NCBI GenBank assembly: GCA_963845755.1
Contig: CAWJTV010000034.1
Span: 576,001 to 640,000, forward strand
DNA length: 64,000 bases
Reading direction: 5' to 3'
Source of the DNA: an uncultured Planctomycetota bacterium
Lineage (GTDB): Bacteria > Planctomycetota > Planctomycetia > Isosphaerales > Isosphaeraceae
Shown: in pieces, positions 50,284 to 64,000 of the stretch
Position numbering within the stretch: position 1 is the first letter of the stretch
How the letters are laid out: every line of letters begins with the position of its first letter
The notes under the pieces: generated by a model
The model's input: only the letters and a program-made list of their open reading frames with translations
What the model was told of the DNA's origin: nothing
Databases searched by the model: none
Program-made: the position numbers and the translations under genes

Positions 50284-50860
50284 CGTTGTCTCGTCCAGAA
50301 GGAAGACCTTGGGGTGGTCGCTCGAATCATCGCTTGCTATCGTAAATCCGAGCATTGAGGAAGACCGCTGCCAGATGAAGCGGTTCATGTCGATAATCTA
50401 GAACTCGCTCGGCCCGGAGGGGCGTCCCACGGTCCAGCCTCGGTGCGGAGTATCACCGTTAGTGTGCCGAGTTCCCGGCTCAGCAAACGTAAATGGAGTC
50501 CGCTGTATCGGTCGGGGCCATCCACCGATCGAATTGGCCCTCGCGATGATCTGGGCGTTCATGATCGCCATGTGCGCAGGTGGGTCGAACCTCGAACGCC
50601 CCTGATATCGTTCGGAAAGATCGAGGCAACCCAGGCGCGAAGGACGACCGTCTCCTCGGTCAAACCCGTCTTCGGGTCTCTGCCGGCGGGTTCTCGTACG
50701 GCAATCCCACGTACTCCGAAAAGAGTGGGTTCGGCAGCGCGACACATCGGCCTTCAGCTCTGTACTTGAGGCTCTCCGGGACGTTCCGCTCTTGACGCCG
50801 CTCGCGTAATCGGGATGTTACCAAGAAGGAGATCTTCGAATGCGGGGAGTCACGCGCACC

Positions 50861-52246
50861 ATGAACACATGGCTGAAGAATCTGGGGCTGGACCGTCCGG
50901 AGCTCCGGGCCTGGGCGATGTACGACTGGGCGAACTCGGCGATGGTATGCACGATCATCACGGCCGTATTCCCCATTTATTATTCGAGTGTGGCTTGCGG
51001 CGGGGTGATGAAGGAAGAGGGGGCGACGCGCTGGTACGCCATCGCGACGACCGTCGGGATGGTCATCATCGCCGTGATCTCGCCGCTGCTGGGTACCATG
51101 GCCGATTTCAACGGCCGGAAGAAACGGATGCTCGGCGGGTTTCTGACGCTCGGGGTCGGATCGGTCGCCGCGATGTTCTTTATCTACAAGGGCAACTGGA
51201 TCCTGGCCTCGATCCTCTTCATCCTGGCCAACATCGGAGCCAATGGCAGCTTCGTCTTCTACGATGCGCTGTTACCCCACATCGCTCGCAAGGATGAGGT
51301 CAACCGAGTCTCGACAGCCGGCTACGCCCTGGGCTACCTCGGCGGCGGCGTGCTGCTCGCAATGAACCTGGCCTGGATCCAGAAGCCGGAGTGGTTCGGG
51401 CTGCCGTCAGGGGAGAATCTGACGATGGCCCAGGCCACGCTCCCCGCGCGGCTGTCGTTCGTGTCGGTGGCGATCTGGTGGCTGGTCTTCTCGATCCCGC
51501 TGTTCCGTCGCGTGCCGGAGCCCAGGGCGACCGGGTTGCCCGTCGGGTACGAAGCCGAGGCCGGTTCGTCGCTCCCGATCCGAGCGGCCGTCGCCCGGTT
51601 GGGCGAGACGTTTCGAGCCCTACGCCGTTATCGCCAGGCGTTCGTCATGCTTCTGGCCTTCCTGATCTTCAACGACGGCATCGGCACGATCATGCGGATG
51701 GCGACCATCTACGCGACCGAGCTCAAGATCGATCAGGGGATCACGATCGCCTCGATCCTGATCGTGCAGTTCGTCGGCATCCCGTTTGCTTTCCTCTTCG
51801 GGATGCTGGCCGGCCGGATCGGCGCCAAGCTCTCGATCGCGCTGGGGCTACTGGTCTACGTGGGGATCTGCGTTTTCGGCTACTTCATGACCAATGGTAC
51901 GCATTTCCTGATCCTGGCCATCCTGGTCGGAACCGTGCAGGGAGGAACCCAGGCCCTGAGCCGCTCTCTCTTCGCCACGTTGATCCCGCGCGACAAGTCG
52001 GGCGAGTTCTTCGGATTCTTCGGCGTCGCCGAGAAATTCGCCGGGATCTTCGGGCCGGCCATCTTCGCCGTGATCAACTTCCTGAGCGGCTCCAGCCGCG
52101 GCGCGATCATCTCGGTCATCGCGTTCTTCATCGTCGGCGGCGGATTGCTCGCGATGGTTGATGTCCCGGAGGGTCAGCGAATCGCTCGCGAGGAAGAGGA
52201 TCATACCGACCACACACGGACGGCACTCGACCTCGAATCGAGCTGA
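50861..52246 (+). CDS. MFS transporter, UMF1/Atg22 family
   Basis: AWAMYDWANSA, FYDALLP, GYALGYLGG, FNDGIGT, GGTQALSRSLF..EFFGF. Confidence 0.9.
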   Translation: MNTWLKNLGLDRPELRAWAMYDWANSAMVCTIITAVFPIYYSSVACGGVMKEEGATRWYAIATTVGMVIIAVISPLLGTMADFNGRKKRMLGGFLTLGVGSVAAMFFIYKGNWILASILFILANIGANGSFVFYDALLPHIARKDEVNRVSTAGYALGYLGGGVLLAMNLAWIQKPEWFGLPSGENLTMAQATLPARLSFVSVAIWWLVFSIPLFRRVPEPRATGLPVGYEAEAGSSLPIRAAVARLGETFRALRRYRQAFVMLLAFLIFNDGIGTIMRMATIYATELKIDQGITIASILIVQFVGIPFAFLFGMLAGRIGAKLSIALGLLVYVGICVFGYFMTNGTHFLILAILVGTVQGGTQALSRSLFATLIPRDKSGEFFGFFGVAEKFAGIFGPAIFAVINFLSGSSRGAIISVIAFFIVGGGLLAMVDVPEGQRIAREEEDHTDHTRTALDLESS

Positions 52247-52264: not shown

Positions 52265-53081
52265 TCATAATTCCTGTTCGGGACTGGCTGGTGTCCGCTT
52301 CACCCAGTGGGCCACGCTGATCGCCCACGACGCACCAGGTAGAGCACGGGGTAGCTCAACGAAGCCCAGGTCCCCCACAGCGTGGCCGCATCCCGTTGTG
52401 ATGCCGAGTCCGGTAGATTGTAGATCATCCAGACCAATGAGAAGGTCCAGGGGATGCCGAGGATCGACATGAACCGGTTGAACTTGCCCGGCAATGAGGG
52501 GTACAGGTAGCGGGACGGTACGAATGTGAGCAGGGCCAGCACGACGACGACCGCCAGCGAGACCCAGCTCCCGAACGGCAGTGCGTAGAGATACACGGCC
52601 ACCACGTTCCAGAGCGACGGGAAGCCGAGGAAATAGCCGTCGTCGGTCTTGGCCTGGACCTGGCAGAAGCCATAGGCACTGGCCACTAATGGGAGGAAGA
52701 GCCAGGCTTCATATCCGGCTGGCAGGATCCCCGCGCGATAGATCAGCATCAAGGGAAGGAACGTGTAGGTCAGGAAATCGATGATATCGTCCAGGCGGCG
52801 GCCATCGAAGCTGGGAACGGCCTCCTTGATCCGGACCCGCCGCGCCAGTGTGCCGTCGGTCGCGTCGACGACCGTGGCGATCACCATCAGCAAGAACGAC
52901 CCGCGAAACGCACCGGTCCTCCGTGGATGAGCAACACCGCGATCATCCCGGCGAGGATCAGTCCCAGCCCTGTGTAGGCGTGGACGCACCAACCCTGGAC
53001 CCGTTGGAGCAGCCCCGGCGCACGCCACTCGCGCTTCGGTTTCGCCACTTTCCGACGTCTACGTACTTGCAACTTGACCAT
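52265..53081 (-). CDS. pcs: Phosphatidylcholine synthase (CDP-alcohol phosphatidyltransferase) (frameshifts near 52915 and 52335)
   Basis: VHAYTG.G, DATDGTLARR..FDGRRLDDIIDFLTY, KTDDGYFLGFPSLWN, LTFVP..YLYP match the Pcs subfamily. Confidence 0.82.
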
Positions 53082-53187
53082 CGAAGCCTCCTGGGGTACG
53101 CCCCGGCAGGATGAACGATGACTCAACCCGGTCTGACTCAACCTTCATCGTTCCCATCCCATCCCTGCCCCATGCAGGGTGAGGGAC

Positions 53188-54753
53188 CTACGACCTACGA
53201 CCTACTGGCCAAGCATGCTCCACCAATATCCCCGACTTCCTGCGCTGCACCAACTGATAGTAAACCGCGCCAGCGGCGAGCAAGACCAGGGTTGACAAGG
53301 GGGCGGCGAAACGGCCCAAGGGGTCCGGTCCGTAAATCTCGGCCCGCGGCCAACTGATATTCAGGACAACGAAGATGCCCCAGGCGACCGCGAAGGCGTT
53401 GACCGGCAGGCCGAGCCGACCAATCGAGAAGAGACCAGAACGATCGGCGACGGCCTCGACCTGGATGACCGAGCGACGGTCTGCGTGCGGTCCACTTCGA
53501 CGGAACCGCGCGAGCAACATCGGGAAGGTCACCAGCAGGTACGCCAGGTTCACCCAGACGATGGCGACCGAGCAGAGAGTCTCGATGACCCGCGGCAAGT
53601 TGATGTTCACGATCAACAGCGCGGCCGCCAGTCCGCCGATCAGGATCGGCGGCAGGATCGGGGCCTGCGTCCGCTCGGGCACGTGGCCGAGCAACCGCGC
53701 AAACGGGAGATTGTTGTCCCGAGCCATCGCGAAGACCAACCGGACCGTCCCGGCGTGGACGGCGAGCACGCAGACGAACACGGCGAGGATGACGTCGGCC
53801 AGGAACAAGGTGCCGATACCGGAGCCCAGTACATCCTTGATCAGGAAGGAAAGGCCGCCCGAGATCCGGCCGAGTTCAGGGAGGGTCGGGTCGCTCACCG
53901 CGAGGATGCTGAAAAGGATCAGCAACCCACCGGTCACGGTGGCGGCGCTGAGTGCCAGGAGGATCGCCCGAGGCGCACGGCGACGCGGCTGCCCGGTCTC
54001 CTCGGCCAGGGTACCAGCGGTGTCAAATCCATAGAGGACGTAAGATGCCATCAGTGCCGCTGCCAGGAATGACCCAATATAGCCGAGCGGTTGCCCGCTA
54101 CCCCGCCCCTGCGTGTCGAACAAGACGATCGGTCCACGAACGGCCCGCGCAGCCAGCAGGCCGATCAGCAAGACCACCCCAACCAGCTCGGCGGCGACCC
54201 CGACGTTGTTGATGCGCGCCATGAGCCGCACGCCGGCCACATTGATAACGGTGGTCGCTGCGATCAACACGCAGCCGAGTATCACCGCGTTGCGGGCGGT
54301 GTCCGAGAGGTTCGACGAGTCACCGATCAATTGGAACACCGGTGAGATCTGCGGGAGCGTGGCCTGCGGCGCCAGGGCGACCGCCGATAGCGAGATCACT
54401 GAGCCGCACAAATAGACCCAACCGGCCATCCAACCGACGGCGCGGCCGCCGGTCCGCCGAGACCACTGGTAGATCCCCCCCGACAGCGGATATTGCGCCG
54501 AGAGCTCGGCGAAGCACAACGCCACGGTCAGTTGCCCCAGGAACACGGCCGGCCAGGTCCAGAAGAAGGCGGGACCCCCGGCCCCATAGCCCACGTAGAA
54601 CATCTGGAACACGCCGGTCAGGATCGAGATATACGAGAACCCTGCGGCGAACGCGGAAAAGCTGCCGAGCGTCCGGTCGAGCACCGGCTTGTAGCCGAAG
54701 GACGCCAGATCCCGACTATCATCCGGGAAGGATGAAGGATCAACGTTTTCCAT
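53188..54753 (-). CDS. APC-family amino acid/amine permease
   Basis: FSAFAAGFSYISILTG, FAELSAQYPLSGGIYQW, GFDTAGTLAEET, RLVFAMARD. Confidence 0.9.
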   Translation of the reverse strand: MENVDPSSFPDDSRDLASFGYKPVLDRTLGSFSAFAAGFSYISILTGVFQMFYVGYGAGGPAFFWTWPAVFLGQLTVALCFAELSAQYPLSGGIYQWSRRTGGRAVGWMAGWVYLCGSVISLSAVALAPQATLPQISPVFQLIGDSSNLSDTARNAVILGCVLIAATTVINVAGVRLMARINNVGVAAELVGVVLLIGLLAARAVRGPIVLFDTQGRGSGQPLGYIGSFLAAALMASYVLYGFDTAGTLAEETGQPRRRAPRAILLALSAATVTGGLLILFSILAVSDPTLPELGRISGGLSFLIKDVLGSGIGTLFLADVILAVFVCVLAVHAGTVRLVFAMARDNNLPFARLLGHVPERTQAPILPPILIGGLAAALLIVNINLPRVIETLCSVAIVWVNLAYLLVTFPMLLARFRRSGPHADRRSVIQVEAVADRSGLFSIGRLGLPVNAFAVAWGIFVVLNISWPRAEIYGPDPLGRFAAPLSTLVLLAAGAVYYQLVQRRKSGILVEHAWPVGRRS

Positions 54754-54838
54754 CCTTCAGCCCTCGGCCTTCGGCGTTCCGAAGACGCTTTTAGCGATCC
54801 GAAGACACGTTCAGCCTTTGTCCCCTCTCATTCATCCT

Positions 54839-55672
54839 TCAGCCCTCATCCTTCGGCCTTCCCGAGGGAGCGGAGCGAGCGAGGTAGATGCCCCATTTCA
54901 TATCGACGGCCTGGCAGAAGCCGACCTTCATCGCCCAACGCTCGACGAGGTAATTCAGGTCGGCCTCCGAGAACGACGCGAGGAACTCGGCGCGGTGATT
55001 GGTCAGTCGGTCCATCTCGGCCTGAAGGATCTCGACGAATTTGGCGGTGGCGTCGTCAACAACAACATCCACGAATCCGGCAGCGCGGAGTCGTTCGCCG
55101 TATTGCTCGGGCTCGATCACGCTGTAGCCGGTCTTCTCGATGTAGCGCTCGAATTCCGCCGAGCCGGGCGACTTGCCGCGCACGTAATCGGTGATCGCCA
55201 GCCGGCCGCCGGGGGCCATGAGCTGATAAAGCCGGGAGAATAGTCGATCTTTATCGGGGATGTGCATGAAGGCGTCCCGGCTCCAGATGACATCGAACGG
55301 CTCGGAGAACGTCGTCTCGAGCACGTCGCCGAGCAGGAAGTTCACCGAGTCACCCATCCCGAGTCGCGCGGTCTGCTCGACGGCGATGGCGACCATTTCC
55401 TCGGCGAGGTCGATCCCCGTGACCTTCGCCCCATAGGCACGGGCCACGTGGAACGCGGCACCGCCGATCCCGCTGCCCACGTCGAGCACGCGCGCCCCCG
55501 GCCGAAGTGCCGAGCCCAGCCGGGCGCAGAGGTCCTCGGTCGTCGCGTGGCCGCCGGTGCTGATGTATCCCTCACCGAAGATCTTCTCGTATCTCAGGAT
55601 CGAGGTACGGCTGTACTGTCCATTGTTGTCGAACTTCGAACTGGCCGTCGGGGCGGTTTGGAGCGTCGTCAT
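54839..55672 (-). CDS. Phosphoethanolamine N-methyltransferase-like (PMT/PEAMT, single domain)
   Basis: QYSRTSILRYEKIFGEGYISTGG, VLDVGSGIGG, FDVIWSRDAFMHIPDK, ITDY, and the terminal KWG match plant/Plasmodium PMT signatures. Confidence 0.8.
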   Translation of the reverse strand: MTTLQTAPTASSKFDNNGQYSRTSILRYEKIFGEGYISTGGHATTEDLCARLGSALRPGARVLDVGSGIGGAAFHVARAYGAKVTGIDLAEEMVAIAVEQTARLGMGDSVNFLLGDVLETTFSEPFDVIWSRDAFMHIPDKDRLFSRLYQLMAPGGRLAITDYVRGKSPGSAEFERYIEKTGYSVIEPEQYGERLRAAGFVDVVVDDATAKFVEILQAEMDRLTNHRAEFLASFSEADLNYLVERWAMKVGFCQAVDMKWGIYLARSAPSGRPKDEG

Positions 55673-55829
55673 GGGATGCCTGAATTCCGAGGTTTCCGTC
55701 CACTCCCGGCACAGCGGCCGGGAGAAACTCGCTAAAGCGAATATTATGCGAAGGTTACGCGAAGAATGTAAAGACCGCGTTCGCCGGCCGCATCCCCTGA
55801 TAGGGAGACCGAGCAGACTGACCGCGGCA

Positions 55830-56776
55830 CTACGAGGTTCCTCCAGGAGGTGTCGGTGCGACGGAATCCAGCCGCCGTCGGGCCGTTCGATACGCCTCAA
55901 AGTTCTCGCGGGCATACCGTCCATAATCGAAGTCGATGTCGGAGTTCAACGACTGGATGACCGCCCAGAGAGCCTCGCGGAGCAGCGACACGGCCTGAAA
56001 GATTCGCAGCTCGGCGAGATCGCGCGGGTCGGGCTTAACGGTCTCACGATAGGCCGACAACAAGGCAATCTCCTGGTCCTCGGCAAGTGCGGCATTGGCC
56101 GAGACGTTGGCCAGGTCGAACAGGGGATGGCCGACCCCGCCGTATTCCCAGTCAACCAGCCAGAGCCGACAGCCATCGTCGATCAGGTTGGCCGGCAGCA
56201 GATCGTTGTGGCAAAGTACCGGCCGGAACGGTGCGATCCGCCATGATAATTGGCGGGCGTCCTCGAGCATCGCGGCGATGTCGAATGGCGTTTCCGCGCC
56301 GAGCCGGGCCGCCGTGCGCAGCGTATGTGCGTACGGTCTGGAACGGACAGAAATACAGGACCTCGCCGGCCAGTGAGTCCCATGCCCCGTGAAGGCGGCG
56401 GAGCAGGGCCGACCAGGCGATCGAGTACGTCCGGCGAGGAAACATCGGTCGCCGCCAGGGTCCGCCCCTCGACGAAACGGGTGATGAGTAAACCGTCCTC
56501 GTGATGGATGGTTTCCGGCGCGAGTCCCCAGGCGCTGACCACTTCTTGACAGACCGCCTCGTTGCGGCGGTCGATGCCCAGCAACGGACGCGGTACGCAG
56601 AGCCGCGCAACATAGGACTCGGCCGCGCTGCCACCGATTCGGATCGCGAAGTTCCGGTTGGTGATCCCTCCGGTGATTGGCCGGATCGCCGGGTCGTTGC
56701 GCCAGAGTCCCAGCTCGTTCAGCCGGCGGATCAACGCGGGCCGTGGGTCCGTGGGGGCATCGTGGCCATCGAGCAT
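55830..56776 (-). CDS. Choline/ethanolamine kinase family protein (frameshifts near 56330-56410)
   Basis: GGITNRNF, GIDRRNE, Brenner motif CHNDLLPANL, choline kinase motif LVDWEYGG..FDLAN. Confidence 0.82.
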
Positions 56777-59516: not shown

Positions 59517-59964
59517 GGGATGACTCCAGTGCCTCGAGAGACAGGATGAGCGGATTGAGATGTCGAGTATCAGTTCCGTGACGGAGATGGGTGCGCGGCG
59601 GCCCACTCGGTCCCAACCGGCATTATGAGGGTGTGCGCACCGATTTCCAAAGAGGGGAGATACTCGTCGCGTCGAGATGTCCGGGCCAATCGCCGTCAGC
59701 GAGTATTATGGTCCCACTGGCTCAATGATGCCGATGTCGCCGTGAGAAAGGGCCGGGGAGTGTCCGGAGAAGACAGGACAAGCGGAGCGGGGCGTTTCGG
59801 TGGGTCCGAGATGGCCAAGGCCCTGGTGCTGGTCGCGACGAACGTCGGGGGCTTGAGCCGGATGCGAACCCCAGCCGAGGTCGTGATCGGTGGCAACGCG
59901 GTCCCGCCCGGGCGAGCGGCCGCGCCGTATCGAGCCGGTCAGAGGCGAAAAAGGGGGACGGCTT

Positions 59965-60629
59965 TTACGCTTGCTCTTTGCGAGGCCGGCCTCGGGGACG
60001 CAAGCACGACTCGAGCCCCAGCCGAATCGCGGTCTTCCGGGTCCAGGCCTCTCCGCCGAACGGTCGGCCCCGTGACACCGAGTGCCGCAACCGCTGGAGG
60101 TCGCCGGCCGATGAGCGGCTCGTTGACGCGCTCCAGCCACCGATCATCGCGGACCGGCACCCGGCCCCGCCACAGCAACGGATCGCGACGCAGCCAGCCG
60201 GGGAGGCTCGACCACGTCCAGTCCTCGGCTCGTGAGACCAGTTCGGCCCGCAACGCATTCCGTTCGACGTAGCGGAGCACCGTGACCAGATGGTCGTCAC
60301 TCTGGACGGGGAACGCCTGGAACCGCCCCTGCCAGATGTGCCCCGAGGTGCCGTAATGGCGATGGTAGCGGCGCGCGTGGGCCGTGAGCAGCCACTGCAT
60401 CCAGCGACCCAGGTCGCCATCCTGCTTGGTTCTCAGCACCAAGTGGAAGTGGTTGGGCATCAGGCAATAGCCGAGGAGGTCAAACCGGGAGGCGGGCGCG
60501 AGCGTCAACCATCGCCTCGACGAAGGCGTCATAATCACCAGGCTTGTGGAAAACGGCCTCGCGGCGATTGCCCCGATTCAGGGCGTGATACCACATCCCA
60601 CCGACCGAGGCGCGAGCGGTTCGCGGCAT
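59965..60629 (-). CDS. REP-associated tyrosine transposase (RAYT, HUH Y1) (frameshifts near 60490 and 60115)
   Basis: MPRTAR..YHALNRGN, YCLMPNHFHL (HUH), GHIWQGRF, RYVERNALRA..AEDWTWSS, C-terminal RPRGRPRK. Confidence 0.9.
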
Positions 60630-60845: not shown

Positions 60846-61796
60846 TGCTCCCCTATGGCGTGACCGTTTCCGTTGTCGCCGGACGTACGCGAGTGAGCCG
60901 ACAGCGCCCATGCTGAGAAGGGCGAGGGTAGAGGGTTCTGGAATAGAGTTGTTGAAAGTAAGCCGGGCCACTCAAGCCGCCACCGCCGAAATCGTTGATA
61001 AACGCCCCTGTCGTGCCATTGAAACGCAGCATGACATTATTGTTAAAGTCGCTAACTAGGAGATCGCCTCCCATGAACGCTAGCCCAACGAGATTTGCTG
61101 CTGAAAAGGGGATCAGTGGCGAAGACGTTCATAAATGCGCCTGTCGTCCCGTTGAAACGCACAACATCACCACTGAAACCGCCGCTGACATAGAGGTTCC
61201 CGTCTGGCCCGAAGACCATTCCTCCGGCTCCATTCGAGCCCGCCACCAGAGGCGAAGACATTCATAAATGCGCCTGTCGTCCCATTGAAACGGAGGACAT
61301 TATTGTTGTGGAAATCGCTGACGTACAGATTGCCATCCCGTCCAAAGATTAGATCCTCGGGTTCAACCAGTCCTCCACCGGAGGCGAAAGTACCCAGAAG
61401 AGCTCCGGTCTTGCCGTCGAATCGCTCAATTCGGTCACCAACGCCGATGTAAAGATCGCCGTCCGGCCCGAAAACCAGGCCATTCAGTTCACCCGAGCCG
61501 CCGCCGCCAGTCGGAATAAATACATTCACAAATGTTCCATTCAATCCATTATAACTCAGAACACTTCTGGAATTAAAGCTTGTAACGTAAAAGTTGCCAT
61601 CGGGCCCGAAAGTCTGATCCACTGGTCCATCCAATCCCCCACCAGAGGCGAAGGTGCCGAGAAAGGCCCCCGTCGTCGTATCATAACGCAGCACGCTGTT
61701 GGTGAAATAGCTGCTGACTATCAGATCCGCCTTTGCTCGCCCCACTGCTCCCAGGAGCGAAGCCAAGGCCGCCAAGCCCCATGCGATTCGTTTCAT
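60771..61796 (-). CDS. PEP-CTERM protein with NHL/Vgb-like beta-propeller repeats (several frameshifts; 3' end uncertain)
   Basis: Signal peptide ..GRAKA; repeated FGPDGNLYV..VLRFNGTTGAF; IPEPSTLALLSMGAVGSLAYVRRQRK. Confidence 0.8.
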
Positions 61797-61878
61797 CGTT
61801 GTGTCTCACACTTGAGGTTAGCACCTATCGGTGGGATGAGGTCTGACTCCACACCTCCGGACCGCACGCCTCCGGGAA

Positions 61879-62027
61879 ATAACTAGAAACTAGGTCTGCC
61901 CACAAGCCTCCCAAGGTCTGCCCACAAGCCTCCCAAGCCTCCCATAACTAGAAACTAGGTCTGCCCACAAGCCTCCTTAAAGCGCTATGTCCCCGTTTTT
62001 CCAAGCTTCTCTATGTCCCCGTTTTTC
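61879..62027. repeat. Mixed repeat cluster between PEP-CTERM genes
   Basis: ATAACTAGAAACTAGGTCTGCCCACAAGCCTCC x2 plus partial copies, then TAAAGCGCTATGTCCCCGTTTTTCC (identical to the RAYT-proximal motif) and CTATGTCCCCGTTTTTC. Confidence 0.88.
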
Positions 62028-62093
62028 TTTCCAGTTTTAGTGTCGCCTGACAGACCCTGCCCCCGCTTTCTCTCTGGGTAGTATCACAAAGGG

Positions 62094-62931
62094 TCAGCCA
62101 CGAAGGCGAAGGGATCGACGGTGCCAGCCGCAGGCAAGCCCGATCACTGCTACGGTACCACACATCACCAGGGTGGAGGGTTCAGGTACGCTGCTTGCCT
62201 GTGCATATCCGAGATTGGCCGAATTAGCATTCATGATCTGATCGAAATTTAATGATATTTTTTTATCCACTTCTGAATTCGATATGCTGAAAGGAACGCT
62301 GAAATCTACCGTCATCAGGGTGGCGATCGTAGTCGACCCAGATGTTGTCACCGCGAAGTCGCTGGGTGAGAACGCCCCAGATGTCGTCAACACACCATCA
62401 ACGAGGGAGGCGCCGGCCGAAAAAAGAGTCTGCCCATTGAGAAGAAGCTGAAATGACATGGCCGACGAGGCACTACCCCGGTTGACCAGGAAGGGGTCGA
62501 TGTGGAGCTTGAAGATACCCAGGTTGAACACTTGCCTGGAAAACGAGGATACCGTCTGCGTCTGCTGAGGCAAAGACGGCGGATGTTTGTTTCGTCCCGG
62601 CATCTGTAAGGGCGTTCGTAGAAACGTCAAAGCCAAACTCAGACGTTACACTAGAAGCAAATGTGTCAGCAAATGAAAAAGTGTGCATTGGTACCGCAGT
62701 TCCTTCTGCTTGACCGGACACGCTGGCAACGACGCCGGTATCTAGATCGGCGAAGTCGGCTCCATCGGAACTCGTAGCACCTATGGCCGCGATACAAGGA
62801 TTCGGTGTAAAGACGAGACCAGGGATTTGAGGAATTAGAATTGCGCCCGCCCACGCGTCGGACCTTGAGCTGACGAGGGTCATGGATAATGCGATCAGGA
62901 ACGCGGTCGAGCGAGGCATGGAACGCGACAC
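62094..62931 (-). CDS. PEP-CTERM surface protein (frameshift near 62530)
   Basis: AGGAGG then GTG at 62931; signal peptide; S/T/F-rich body; SSVPEPSTLVMCGTVAVIGLACGWHRR. Confidence 0.78.
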
Positions 62932-62963
62932 GGTCTTTACCTCCTTGAGGGGAAAAGAGGGAA

Positions 62964-63254
62964 CCAAAAAGGGGGACAGGCCAAAAAGGGGGACATAAGG
63001 CCAAAAAGGGGGACAGGCCAAAAAGGGGGACATAAGGCCAAAAAGGGGGACAGGCCAAAAAGGGGGACATAAGGCCAAAAAGGGAGACAGGCCAAAAAGG
63101 GGGACATAGCACATATTTGGGCATGCCCTACGTCCCCGTTTTCTCATGTTGGGCCAAAAAGGGGGACATAGCGCATATTTGGGCATGCCCTACGTCCCCG
63201 TTTTCTCATGTTGCGATCCGACCGGGGCAAAAACTTGAAACTAGGTCTGACCCC
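62964..63254. repeat. Tandem REP/REPIN array
   Basis: Alternating CCAAAAAGGGGGACAGG and CCAAAAAGGGGGACATAAGG (37-bp period); then two 62-bp hairpin units AAAAAGGGGGACATAG...CTACGTCCCCGTTTT; then GAAACTAGGTCTGACCCC. Confidence 0.9.
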
Positions 63255-63312
63255 GAGCCACCCCCGAGGGGCGATCCCCTGAGGGCGACCCAGCCCGGTC
63301 CTCACTTTCACT

Positions 63313-64000
63313 TCACTTGCCTGACCGGCGCCGGCGAGCGACGCAGCCCAGGCCTGCCAGAAAGGCTGTGCCCGCCATGACCAAGGATGCGGGCTCGGGC
63401 ACCCCGGCCACGGCGATGTTGTTCACGGCGACGGGGCTGAAGCTTCCGCTCAGTATGGAACTGAAGAGCGGCGTGGAGGATTCGAAGGCGAACCCCAATC
63501 CGATGGTCCTGCTCGACACAAGTAGGCTCGCGAACGGGGAGCTAGCGGCACTGGACCCGGCCGTGATGTTGTTGACCAGCAGGTCGAAGCGGTTGCCCAT
63601 CGAGCTCTCGTTGTATTGGACCCCTTCAACGGTCCCGGAGAAATAACTGCCCACGGTGAGCGACGCGGTGGACGCGGGGAAGAACTGGGCCACGTTAACC
63701 CCGAACGCAGTTCCCGTCCCGACCAAGTTGAAGCTCCCTGAGACCGAGACTGGCGCGCCTACGATCGGGTCCGAGGCGAAAGACGATCCCGTGACGAAGT
63801 CCCCAGTGAAGTTCAGGACGCCAGCGCTCATGCTTGCAGTCCCGTTCGAATTGAGCGACCCGCCGTTGCTCAGCTCTATGACGGGCCCGGAGGGCGGAGG
63901 CGGAGTCGGAGGCAGGACGCATTGACAGGTGGTCATCACGTCGAGGGGGCTTCCATGCTTGTCCTTGATCGTAACGTCGAATGTCGCGCACATGTCCGGA
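63313..64000 (-). CDS. PEP-CTERM surface protein (5' end outside the window)
   Basis: AGVPEPASLVMAGTAFLAGLGCVARRRR at the C-terminus; the frame is open to the window edge. Confidence 0.85.
   Translation of the reverse strand, partial: PDMCATFDVTIKDKHGSPLDVMTTCQCVLPPTPPPPSGPVIELSNGGSLNSNGTASMSAGVLNFTGDFVTGSSFASDPIVGAPVSVSGSFNLVGTGTAFGVNVAQFFPASTASLTVGSYFSGTVEGVQYNESSMGNRFDLLVNNITAGSSAASSPFASLLVSSRTIGLGFAFESSTPLFSSILSGSFSPVAVNNIAVAGVPEPASLVMAGTAFLAGLGCVARRRRSGK

Follow-up and report, generated by a model that had tools for sequence, protein, structure and literature searches.

The window analyzed here is a stretch of 64,000 nucleotides (positions 576001-640000 of contig C34) from the 14.3-Mb, 88% complete assembly G000 of an uncultured member of the Isosphaeraceae (Planctomycetota). 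It carries four adjacent genes, which are predicted to encode a choline/ethanolamine kinase, a phosphoethanolamine N-methyltransferase (PMT) homologue, an APC-superfamily permease and a phosphatidylcholine synthase (Pcs). All four are co-oriented on the minus strand (Table 1), as the initial annotation had described, and its family calls were upheld by matches to PF01633 for the kinase, to PF13520 for the permease and, for pcs, to five Pcs models that scored far above PssA. The PMT signature motifs pointed out at that stage were also read in the methyltransferase, as QYSRTSILRYEKIFGEGYISTGG and SRDAFMHIPDK.

Table 1. Features of the pcs-PMT cluster (positions in the window) and of the decarboxylase encoded on another contig of the same assembly.
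Feature	Position	Strand	Remarks
Choline/ethanolamine kinase family gene	55830..56776	-	PF01633 on both pieces; split by two single-base insertions
Sigma-70-like site TTTACA-N18-CATAAT	55743..55772	-	~100 nt before PMT start
PMT homologue, single domain, 277 aa, intact	54839..55672	-	PfPMT / plant C-terminal-domain type, Arg243 variant
APC-superfamily permease, 521 aa, intact	53188..54753	-	PF13520, E 6.2e-46
Phosphatidylcholine synthase (Pcs) gene	52265..53081	-	Five Pcs models; split by two single-base deletions
ATG22/UMF1-like MFS transporter gene, convergent on pcs	50840..52246	+	PF11700, E 1.2e-59
SMUL_1544-type decarboxylase gene of G000	C20:346913-348146 (L232:4411-5650)	-	Two frames; 64-71% identical to the tested orthologue

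The kinase and pcs genes are each spread over three reading frames in the window, a point absent from the initial annotation. Comparison with two relatives placed the extra bases of the kinase gene near 56412 and 56320, and the missing bases of pcs near 52915 and 52337. These frame breaks are very probably assembly errors, since split open reading frames (ORFs) are common in G000 (the matches of 15 of 39 test ORFs of relatives, which include some antisense shadow ORFs, were spread over several frames) and most relatives have intact versions of the two genes. One relative's contig carries an added base at 52914, close to one of the pcs deletions. The contigs obtained from four read runs were sparse and short, and none among those listed spans the four indel sites at near-identity.

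The 11 best sequence matches of the methyltransferase in the PDB were all PMTs, with E-values from 1.7e-67 (AtPMT2) to 1.9e-39; the first match outside this group had an E-value of 8.8e-22, and the sarcosine/dimethylglycine N-methyltransferase (SDMT) 2o57 one of 1.2e-15. The 15 best folds for the AlphaFold model of the protein (pLDDT 95.1) were likewise all PMTs. The model could be superposed on AtPMT1 with a Z-score of 37.5 and a root-mean-square deviation of 1.9 over 263 residues, and gave Z-scores of 37.4 with HcPMT2, 37.2 with CePMT2 and 36.2 with PfPMT. Although SDMT shares with the protein the class I S-adenosylmethionine (SAM) fold and small-amine N-methylation, its Z-score was 28.8, as compared with 35-37.5 for most PMTs, and the protein scored only 67.3 bits on the SDMT model NF041675, the cut-off of which is 550. 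On the strength of both the sequence matches and the folds, the proposed placement of the enzyme with the PMTs, rather than with SDMT or the lipid methyltransferases, was supported. The methyltransferase is a true PMT homologue with predicted PMT activity. Its named homologues are from Isosphaeraceae, including Aquisphaera, and the SDMT annotation of the Aquisphaera giovannonii homologue WP_148594107.1 is probably wrong.

Active-site residues are given here in PfPMT numbering, which was transferred by aligning a relative of 66% identity. Gln18, Tyr19, Tyr27, Asp128, His132, Tyr160, Tyr181 and Lys247 are conserved in 119-120 of 120 close homologues, and the catalytic Tyr19, His132 and Asp128 correspond to Y20, H137 and D133 in P0002. 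Asp128 is a further catalytic-site residue and Gln18 a phosphobase ligand; the phosphobase ligands Tyr27, Tyr160, Tyr181 and Lys247 are likewise kept. The catalytic roles of Tyr19 and His132 in PfPMT are described in passages of PMC6705855.

The best NCBIfam matches of the window pcs gene were the five Pcs models, at 140 bits (27 bits for PssA). In six intact relatives these models, with 92-161 bits, were the sole matches at E 1e-8. The five models are lineage-specific, with cut-offs of 300-440 bits that the Isosphaeraceae proteins do not reach, and the latter are Pcs-family homologues outside the modelled lineages, with predicted Pcs activity. The motif DG-x2-AR-x12-G-x3-D-x3-D, the spacing of which we take to be of the Pcs type, was read in the window pcs frame (PF01066, E 0.0019). 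The permease scored 513.9 bits on TIGR03428 and 151.5 bits on TIGR00907, presumably the family of the yeast choline permease Hnm1, in both cases below the cut-off, and 43.5 bits on the ethanolamine-permease model TIGR00908, for which the cut-off is 381.75. Its gene directly precedes pcs in five PMT-negative genomes of 97-99% completeness (G098, G110, G111, G112 and G114), and the two genes are also adjacent where PMT is located elsewhere (G053, G107-G109, G115-G118 and G120). Since this pair occurs in PMT-less genomes, and no more than 8 of the 28 high-quality genomes with PMT have the kinase orthologue, the permease is probably a choline importer that serves Pcs.

In total, PMT was detected in 77 of 121 Isosphaeraceae genomes, including 28 of the 47 high-quality ones, whereas a sample of 400 genomes covering other planctomycetotal families yielded none. 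The pcs gene occurs in 86 of the 121 genomes and in 75 of the 77 that carry PMT, the other two being 76% and 61% complete, such that the suspected tie between PMT and pcs extends across the family. From the PMT-positive genomes, 40 loci were picked so as to have long contigs and to represent many genera. In 32 of these loci pcs lay no more than 7 kb from PMT; the corresponding figures were 26 for the permease and 20 for the kinase, and 12 loci had the complete set of four genes, a linkage greater than chance. The ATG22/UMF1-like transporter gene is a conserved neighbour as well (27 of 41 loci, window included). The cluster had also been described as lacking a phosphatase and a cytidylyltransferase, and neither was found among the PMT-locus neighbours scanned (in one scan, 88 of 110 neighbour representatives and extra ORFs). 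Two modules emerge within the cluster, of which permease-pcs is the tighter.

The HNDL and DWEY motifs were read in the kinase, the C-terminal piece of which scored 55.7 bits on PF01633 (gathering score 29). Intact relatives are above the cut-off of this family, and the best PDB matches of one of them were 3dxq (E 1.4e-28) and the choline kinase 4r77 (E 5.7e-17). Of the 48 genomes with a kinase orthologue, 45 also have PMT; among the 28 high-quality PMT genomes, 12 encode no PF01633 protein at all. We infer that the kinase is dispensable and provides a predicted, optional entry for salvage. The entry envisaged in the initial annotation, i.e., ethanolamine import followed by phosphorylation, was not supported as the main route, in view of the restricted occurrence of the kinase and the low score of the permease on TIGR00908. 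A second, distant (37%) gene of the choline/ethanolamine kinase family (G000:C8:6826-7842) is also present in some genomes that lack the cluster kinase. Between PMT and the kinase upstream of it, the TTTACA-N18-CATAAT site matches the sigma-70 consensus at 10 of 12 positions. In 21 of 41 loci, whether or not a kinase gene precedes, TTTACA and a -10-like hexamer lie 103-170 nt ahead of the PMT start, which suggests a putative promoter from which PMT, permease and pcs would be expressed as a transcription unit of their own.

Reading of the neighbourhoods revealed a CobD-like, pyridoxal phosphate (PLP)-dependent enzyme encoded next to PMT in several Isosphaeraceae genera. Two paralogues were told apart by identity to the query and by their neighbours; a tree of the two, which included an out-of-frame row (G059), was not used. 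Paralogue A is found in 14 genomes, all of them PMT-positive, and adjoins PMT in nine (G042, G052, G061, G083 and G115-G119). Paralogue B is found in 30 genomes, often with cobQ and cbiB; the 10 genomes that have it without CbiB are all PMT-positive, and all nine of its PMT-negative holders have CbiB. Neither paralogue occurs in G000, which encodes a decarboxylase of a third type (Table 1). By sequence and by fold, proteins of this type have their nearest relative in SMUL_1544 of Sulfurospirillum multivorans (PDB 6oux), CobD and HisC being more distant: the E-value was 7.8e-106 for 6oux and 3.4e-27 for the next match, and the structural comparison with 6oux gave a TM-score of 0.83, 43% identity and a fold E-value of 7.6e-38, versus 5.1e-21 for the next. 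SMUL_1544 orthologues are present in 50 of the 121 genomes (a distant 32% match in G056 was left out), together with pcs in all 50, PMT in 46 and CbiB in 4; none of the 50 has either paralogue.

All of the 28 high-quality PMT genomes possess a CobD-family decarboxylase (18 SMUL-type, 4 paralogue A and 6 paralogue B), and none of the six with paralogue B has CbiB. Across the 77 PMT genomes, 72 have one of the three decarboxylases, and the five others are 54-76% complete. We infer from these distributions that phosphoethanolamine would more plausibly be supplied by a phosphoserine decarboxylase with a gene outside the cluster than by import plus kinase. Group II decarboxylases (PF00282) were rejected as a general serine decarboxylase source, being absent from two of five genomes tested. 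Next to the G000 decarboxylase gene on C20 lie a gene for a Gfo/Idh/MocA-like oxidoreductase and one that is sugar-isomerase-like, and these neighbours recur in 9-10 of 23 loci.

An independent lineage outside the Planctomycetota agrees with this assignment: a Desulfobacteraceae contig (L080:7143-9904) carries a C-terminal-type PMT, an SMUL-type decarboxylase and then a stand-alone PMT domain of the plant N-terminal type. This decarboxylase matches 6oux with an E-value of 7.9e-117 and shares 52% identity with its planctomycete counterpart. The triplet of genes was found in 7 of 80 metagenome loci, all from close kin (cf. L254-L260), and three more of the 80 loci pair an SMUL-type decarboxylase with an N-terminal-type PMT domain. 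With its two PMT types, the Desulfobacteraceae-type operon parallels in bacteria the PMT-1 and PMT-2 pair of nematodes, and a TIGR01548-like HAD protein encoded after the operons of L258-L260 is a candidate phosphocholine phosphatase in those organisms.

Neither methylation of phosphatidylethanolamine (PE) by PmtA nor a CDP-choline pathway was found as a route to phosphatidylcholine (PC) in the genomes tested. Psd occurs patchily, in 28 of the 121 genomes and 6 of the 47 high-quality ones, and PssA was not found in five of five genomes tested. A long Psd-family gene (PF02666) lies among insertion sequences in G000 (C33:114966-116210), where no PssA match was detected. The only PmtA-like protein was OlsG, in one copy per genome, besides two weak matches in G014 and one in G075. 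LicC was not found in G000, the six PF12804 matches of which are MocA, MobA, GlmU, ManC, MurU-like and RmlA proteins; nor was a eukaryote-type choline-phosphate cytidylyltransferase (CCT) found in this 88% complete assembly, its PF01467 matches being, by inspection, CoaD, NadD and three RfaE-like proteins. CCT and cholinephosphotransferase (CPT) downstream of PMT, which characterize the eukaryotic phosphobase pathway, are therefore not seen in G000.

In our assessment, PC is probably produced in these bacteria from phosphoserine via phosphoethanolamine, phosphocholine and choline, with Pcs as the final enzyme, choline import by the permease and optional salvage by the kinase. The cluster would then constitute the downstream half of a de novo choline-to-PC route that has no lipid intermediate. 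O-phosphoserine would be converted to phosphoethanolamine by the PLP-dependent CobD-family decarboxylase, the gene of which was found and the activity of which is predicted from its family. The single-domain PMT, recognized by its family and active site, would add three methyl groups from SAM to yield phosphocholine, all three methylations being assigned to this one enzyme since searches of G000 and five relatives revealed no PMT partner of the N-terminal type. Choline would subsequently be freed, probably by a broad-specificity phosphatase, a step to which no gene is assigned, and Pcs, identified by its family, would condense it with CDP-diacylglycerol (CDP-DAG) by an established chemistry. 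The permease would bring in choline for Pcs when available, and the kinase may salvage ethanolamine or methylated ethanolamines.

Several observations weigh against this pathway, some of which concern the methyltransferase itself. Arg179, a phosphobase ligand according to passages of the PfPMT study PMC6705855, is replaced by Thr in 119 of 120 close homologues, and Gly243 by Arg in all 120. In the model, the Arg243 equivalent is located in helix 236-254, four residues before the Lys247 equivalent, and because it lies only one helix turn from the latter, Arg243 could take over the role of Arg179 in the phosphate site. Among 77 diverse homologues (2 rows dropped), 40 have only Arg179, 31 only Arg243, 6 neither and none both, the strongest exclusion of Arg among 666 column pairs; after correction for the tree, with four independent pairs, the exchange was not significant. 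The enzyme is thus a PMT homologue of an Arg243 subgroup and not of the canonical Arg179 type. Furthermore, its only domain is C-terminal-type, as in the nematode PMT-2 enzymes, and these mostly skip the first methylation, according to passages of PMC10269165. PfPMT and the Toxocara canis PMT, as described in parts of PMC10269165 and PMC2824672, carry out the first methylation alone.

Other adverse points concern the supply of phosphoethanolamine. In none of the 22 orthologue loci read does the SMUL-type gene adjoin PMT or pcs, and in other phyla such genes are often found in polysaccharide-type loci. On these grounds, phosphoethanolamine from the SMUL-type enzyme may have another use. Four SMUL-type genomes have no PMT match. 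In three of them pcs or the permease is at a contig edge, but in the fourth, G065, which has the decarboxylase and permease-pcs, the 2.5 kb upstream of this pair contain no PMT. The decarboxylase counts come from related genomes and probably represent three or four independent events, and the SMUL-type genomes may go back to a single acquisition. Where SMUL_1544-type genes occur on low-GC contigs within polysaccharide-type loci (L267-L333), a small HAD-like gene often follows them, and in L290 an asparagine-synthase-like amidotransferase precedes the decarboxylase.

A further adverse point is the release of choline. According to passages of PMC8590670, Pcs joins CDP-DAG to free choline, and therefore phosphocholine must lose its phosphate. 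Three phosphatase candidates failed. The PHOSPHO1/PECP family (PF06888) was not found in G000. The PhnX-like HAD protein TIGR03351, which adjoins PMT in L053, was rejected: it occurs in 49 of 121 genomes and does not track PMT, since several complete genomes with PMT lack it and some genera without PMT have it. The TIGR01548-like HAD protein of three Desulfobacteraceae-type operons has no homologue in G000. Several unassigned HAD proteins are encoded in G000, and dephosphorylation may be performed by a dedicated enzyme of a new kind. A TIGR03364-like FAD oxidoreductase and a PhnX-like HAD protein are encoded together in G000 (C43:28121-29994), and the same pair follows paralogue A next to PMT in G115. 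As for the product itself, passages of PMC12493201 list trimethylornithine lipids, PC, phosphatidylglycerol and phosphatidic acid as the major lipids of Singulisphaera acidiphila (Isosphaeraceae), a species for which gene deletion has been achieved; the cells were grown in a medium with yeast extract and peptone, for which reason the published PC is not proof of de novo synthesis.

Four alternative explanations were weighed. Ethanolamine imported by the permease and phosphorylated by the kinase could be the main supply for PMT and Pcs, the decarboxylases serving other ends. The 12 complete four-gene loci, the 20 loci with a kinase next to PMT, the presence of PMT in nearly all kinase-bearing genomes and the kinase-PMT neighbours in marine bacteria (L081, L088 and L099) are in its favour. 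The kinase is nevertheless lacking from most high-quality PMT genomes, permease-pcs persists in the five PMT-negative ones, the score of the permease on the ethanolamine model is weak and a promoter-like site separates kinase and PMT, all of which renders this supply unlikely. It is more doubtful that PMT resembles nematode PMT-2 in merely finishing scavenged mono- or dimethyl-phosphoethanolamine, or that its altered site accepts another phosphobase. HcPMT2 and CePMT2 are among its best folds, the PMT-2 enzymes mostly skip the first step (passages of PMC10269165), Arg179 is Thr, and a related Arg243 branch with further site changes is found in a PEP-mutase cluster of Nocardia (L089). Against this, G000 and five relatives show no N-terminal-type partner, yet the 28 high-quality PMT genomes all encode a decarboxylase that would make unmethylated phosphoethanolamine, and solitary PMTs capable of the first step are described in the sources cited above. 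Methylation of a phosphonate (aminoethylphosphonate) was also rejected for G000: by inspection, its closest PepM-like match (38%) is a PrpB-type lyase, and its aminoethylphosphonate-transaminase-like match is a serA-linked aminotransferase.

The two other explanations concern the fate of phosphocholine. It might be destined for betaine or other osmolytes or for surface decoration, the link with pcs reflecting only a shared choline metabolism. Marine PMT homologues near betaine-type ABC transporters or oxidoreductases, with no pcs match, and the unassigned phosphatase would fit, but pcs accompanies PMT in 32 of 40 loci and 75 of 77 genomes, and G000 has no OpuAC match, only a partial 28% match to a GMC oxidoreductase and no LicC-type activator that could be found; we regard this as quite improbable. 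Least probable of all, a phosphatase may not be needed, if a Pcs-like enzyme or an unrecognized cytidylyltransferase were to use phosphocholine via CDP-choline and diacylglycerol in a CPT-like manner. The Pcs proteins do fall below all five lineage-specific cut-offs, no conserved phosphatase was seen among the neighbours, and the three RfaE-like proteins of G000 are HXGH nucleotidyltransferases. The Pcs-type motif spacing is kept, however, permease-pcs stands alone in PMT- and kinase-negative genomes, and the six PF12804 matches of G000 all fall to other functions.

This proposed route combines elements of several known systems. With the eukaryotic phosphobase pathway (PfPMT, plant PEAMT and nematode PMT-1/PMT-2) it shares a homologous single-domain methyltransferase, alike in fold and in its catalytic Tyr/His pair, and the methylation of a soluble phosphobase, described for eukaryotes in part of PMC2824672 and predicted for the Isosphaeraceae. 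In contrast to the eukaryotic pathway, the predicted entry is a single phosphoserine decarboxylase, rather than a serine decarboxylase and a kinase, the exit is via Pcs and CDP-DAG, rather than CCT and CPT, and the methyltransferase has Thr and Arg at positions 179 and 243. The Pcs-family synthase and the adjacent putative choline permease resemble the Pcs pathway of Sinorhizobium, Agrobacterium, Pseudomonas, Legionella and Borrelia. Bacterial Pcs is described as requiring exogenous choline in passages of PMC8590670 and PMC10434233, whereas the Isosphaeraceae pcs is coupled to genes predicted to serve endogenous choline synthesis. PC is also the end product of the PmtA and Treponema LicCA/CPT pathways, which share with the proposed route the triple N-methylation by SAM (PmtA) or the phosphocholine intermediate (LicCA); unlike them, most Isosphaeraceae genomes lack genes for PE synthesis, and no PmtA beyond OlsG and no LicC or CCT were found. 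SMUL_1544 is said to have L-serine-O-phosphate decarboxylase activity, reportedly from the work of Keller et al. It serves norcobamide synthesis beside cbiB, for which it was proposed to make ethanolamine phosphate (passages of PMC4585668), whereas 46 of the 50 Isosphaeraceae holders have no CbiB.

The wider survey of bacterial PMTs, conducted with a generic SAM motif, is a sample and not a census, and the results refer to the matches listed. Arg179 PMTs were found in marine Gammaproteobacteria and others, without pcs. Their neighbours (L077, L081, L084, L088 and L099) include a choline/ethanolamine kinase, a betaine-type ABC transporter, a GcvT-like oxidoreductase, or Rieske and GMC oxidoreductases, which suggests that the marine PMTs feed betaine metabolism. 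A quick, provisional tree placed the Isosphaeraceae PMTs outside a 57-row Arg179 clade (SH-aLRT 92) that contains the marine bacterial PMTs and four named eukaryotic rows. A recent transfer from plants is accordingly not indicated by this tree, in which only those four eukaryotic rows are named. Given the position of the bacterial Arg243 PMTs outside the clade with the eukaryotic sequences, bacterial phosphobase methylation may predate the form known from eukaryotic textbooks.

Other relatives of the methyltransferase were also encountered. In Nocardia sp. CDC153 (L089:7944-8735), a PMT-derived methyltransferase has Arg, Ser and Tyr at the positions of Gln18, Tyr27 and His132; its cluster encodes a PEP mutase and a class V aminotransferase, and it is a possible candidate for an aminophosphonate N-methyltransferase. 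P0124 (553 aa) contains two PMT-like stretches (E 2.9e-103, close to the score of the Isosphaeraceae PMT), which may reflect either a tandem fusion or an artefact of the assembly. No PMT match was found in the phages searched, and a single one in plasmids: on NZ_CP117780.1 of Burkholderia sp. FERM BP-3421 (L334:8977-9771), a PMT-derived methyltransferase (39%) lies next to a TauD dioxygenase and is divergent from a thiaminase/thymidylate-synthase-like gene cluster. PMT homologues in Burkholderia have reportedly been mentioned in a review, and bacterial PMT homologues as such are not new. Within the window, a transposase-like ORF is located at 59939-60538, and a region of lower GC content (61167-63993) contains three ORFs with PEP-CTERM-like tails, as recognized by eye.

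Four bacterial routes to PC, i.e., PmtA, Pcs, CDP-choline and acylation, are distinguished in passages of the reviews PMC8590670 and PMC10434233, and part of the PfPMT paper PMC2824672 describes PMTs as found solely in protozoa, nematodes, frogs and plants. A full-text literature search, which left most subscription journals uncovered, brought up no publication that connects a bacterial PMT with Pcs or with a phosphoserine decarboxylase. Each part of the system belongs to a known family, and their combination was not found in the literature searched. We lean towards the view that the Isosphaeraceae possess a fifth bacterial route to PC, in which choline would be made fully de novo and independently of lipids, for use by Pcs. 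The enzymes would be a decarboxylase of the B12 pathway, taken into service on three occasions through replacement, duplication and retention, and an Arg243 PMT performing all three methylations.

If correct, this would provide a non-B12 role for decarboxylases of the SMUL_1544/CobD type and put right the SDMT annotation in cultured strains. It would further supply a module of two genes with which phosphocholine could be derived from serine metabolism in laboratory E. coli. It would also reveal a soluble, de novo route to choline in a large family of planctomycetes that has PC but mostly lacks the genes for PE synthesis, and would thereby explain the origin of PC in the Isosphaeraceae.

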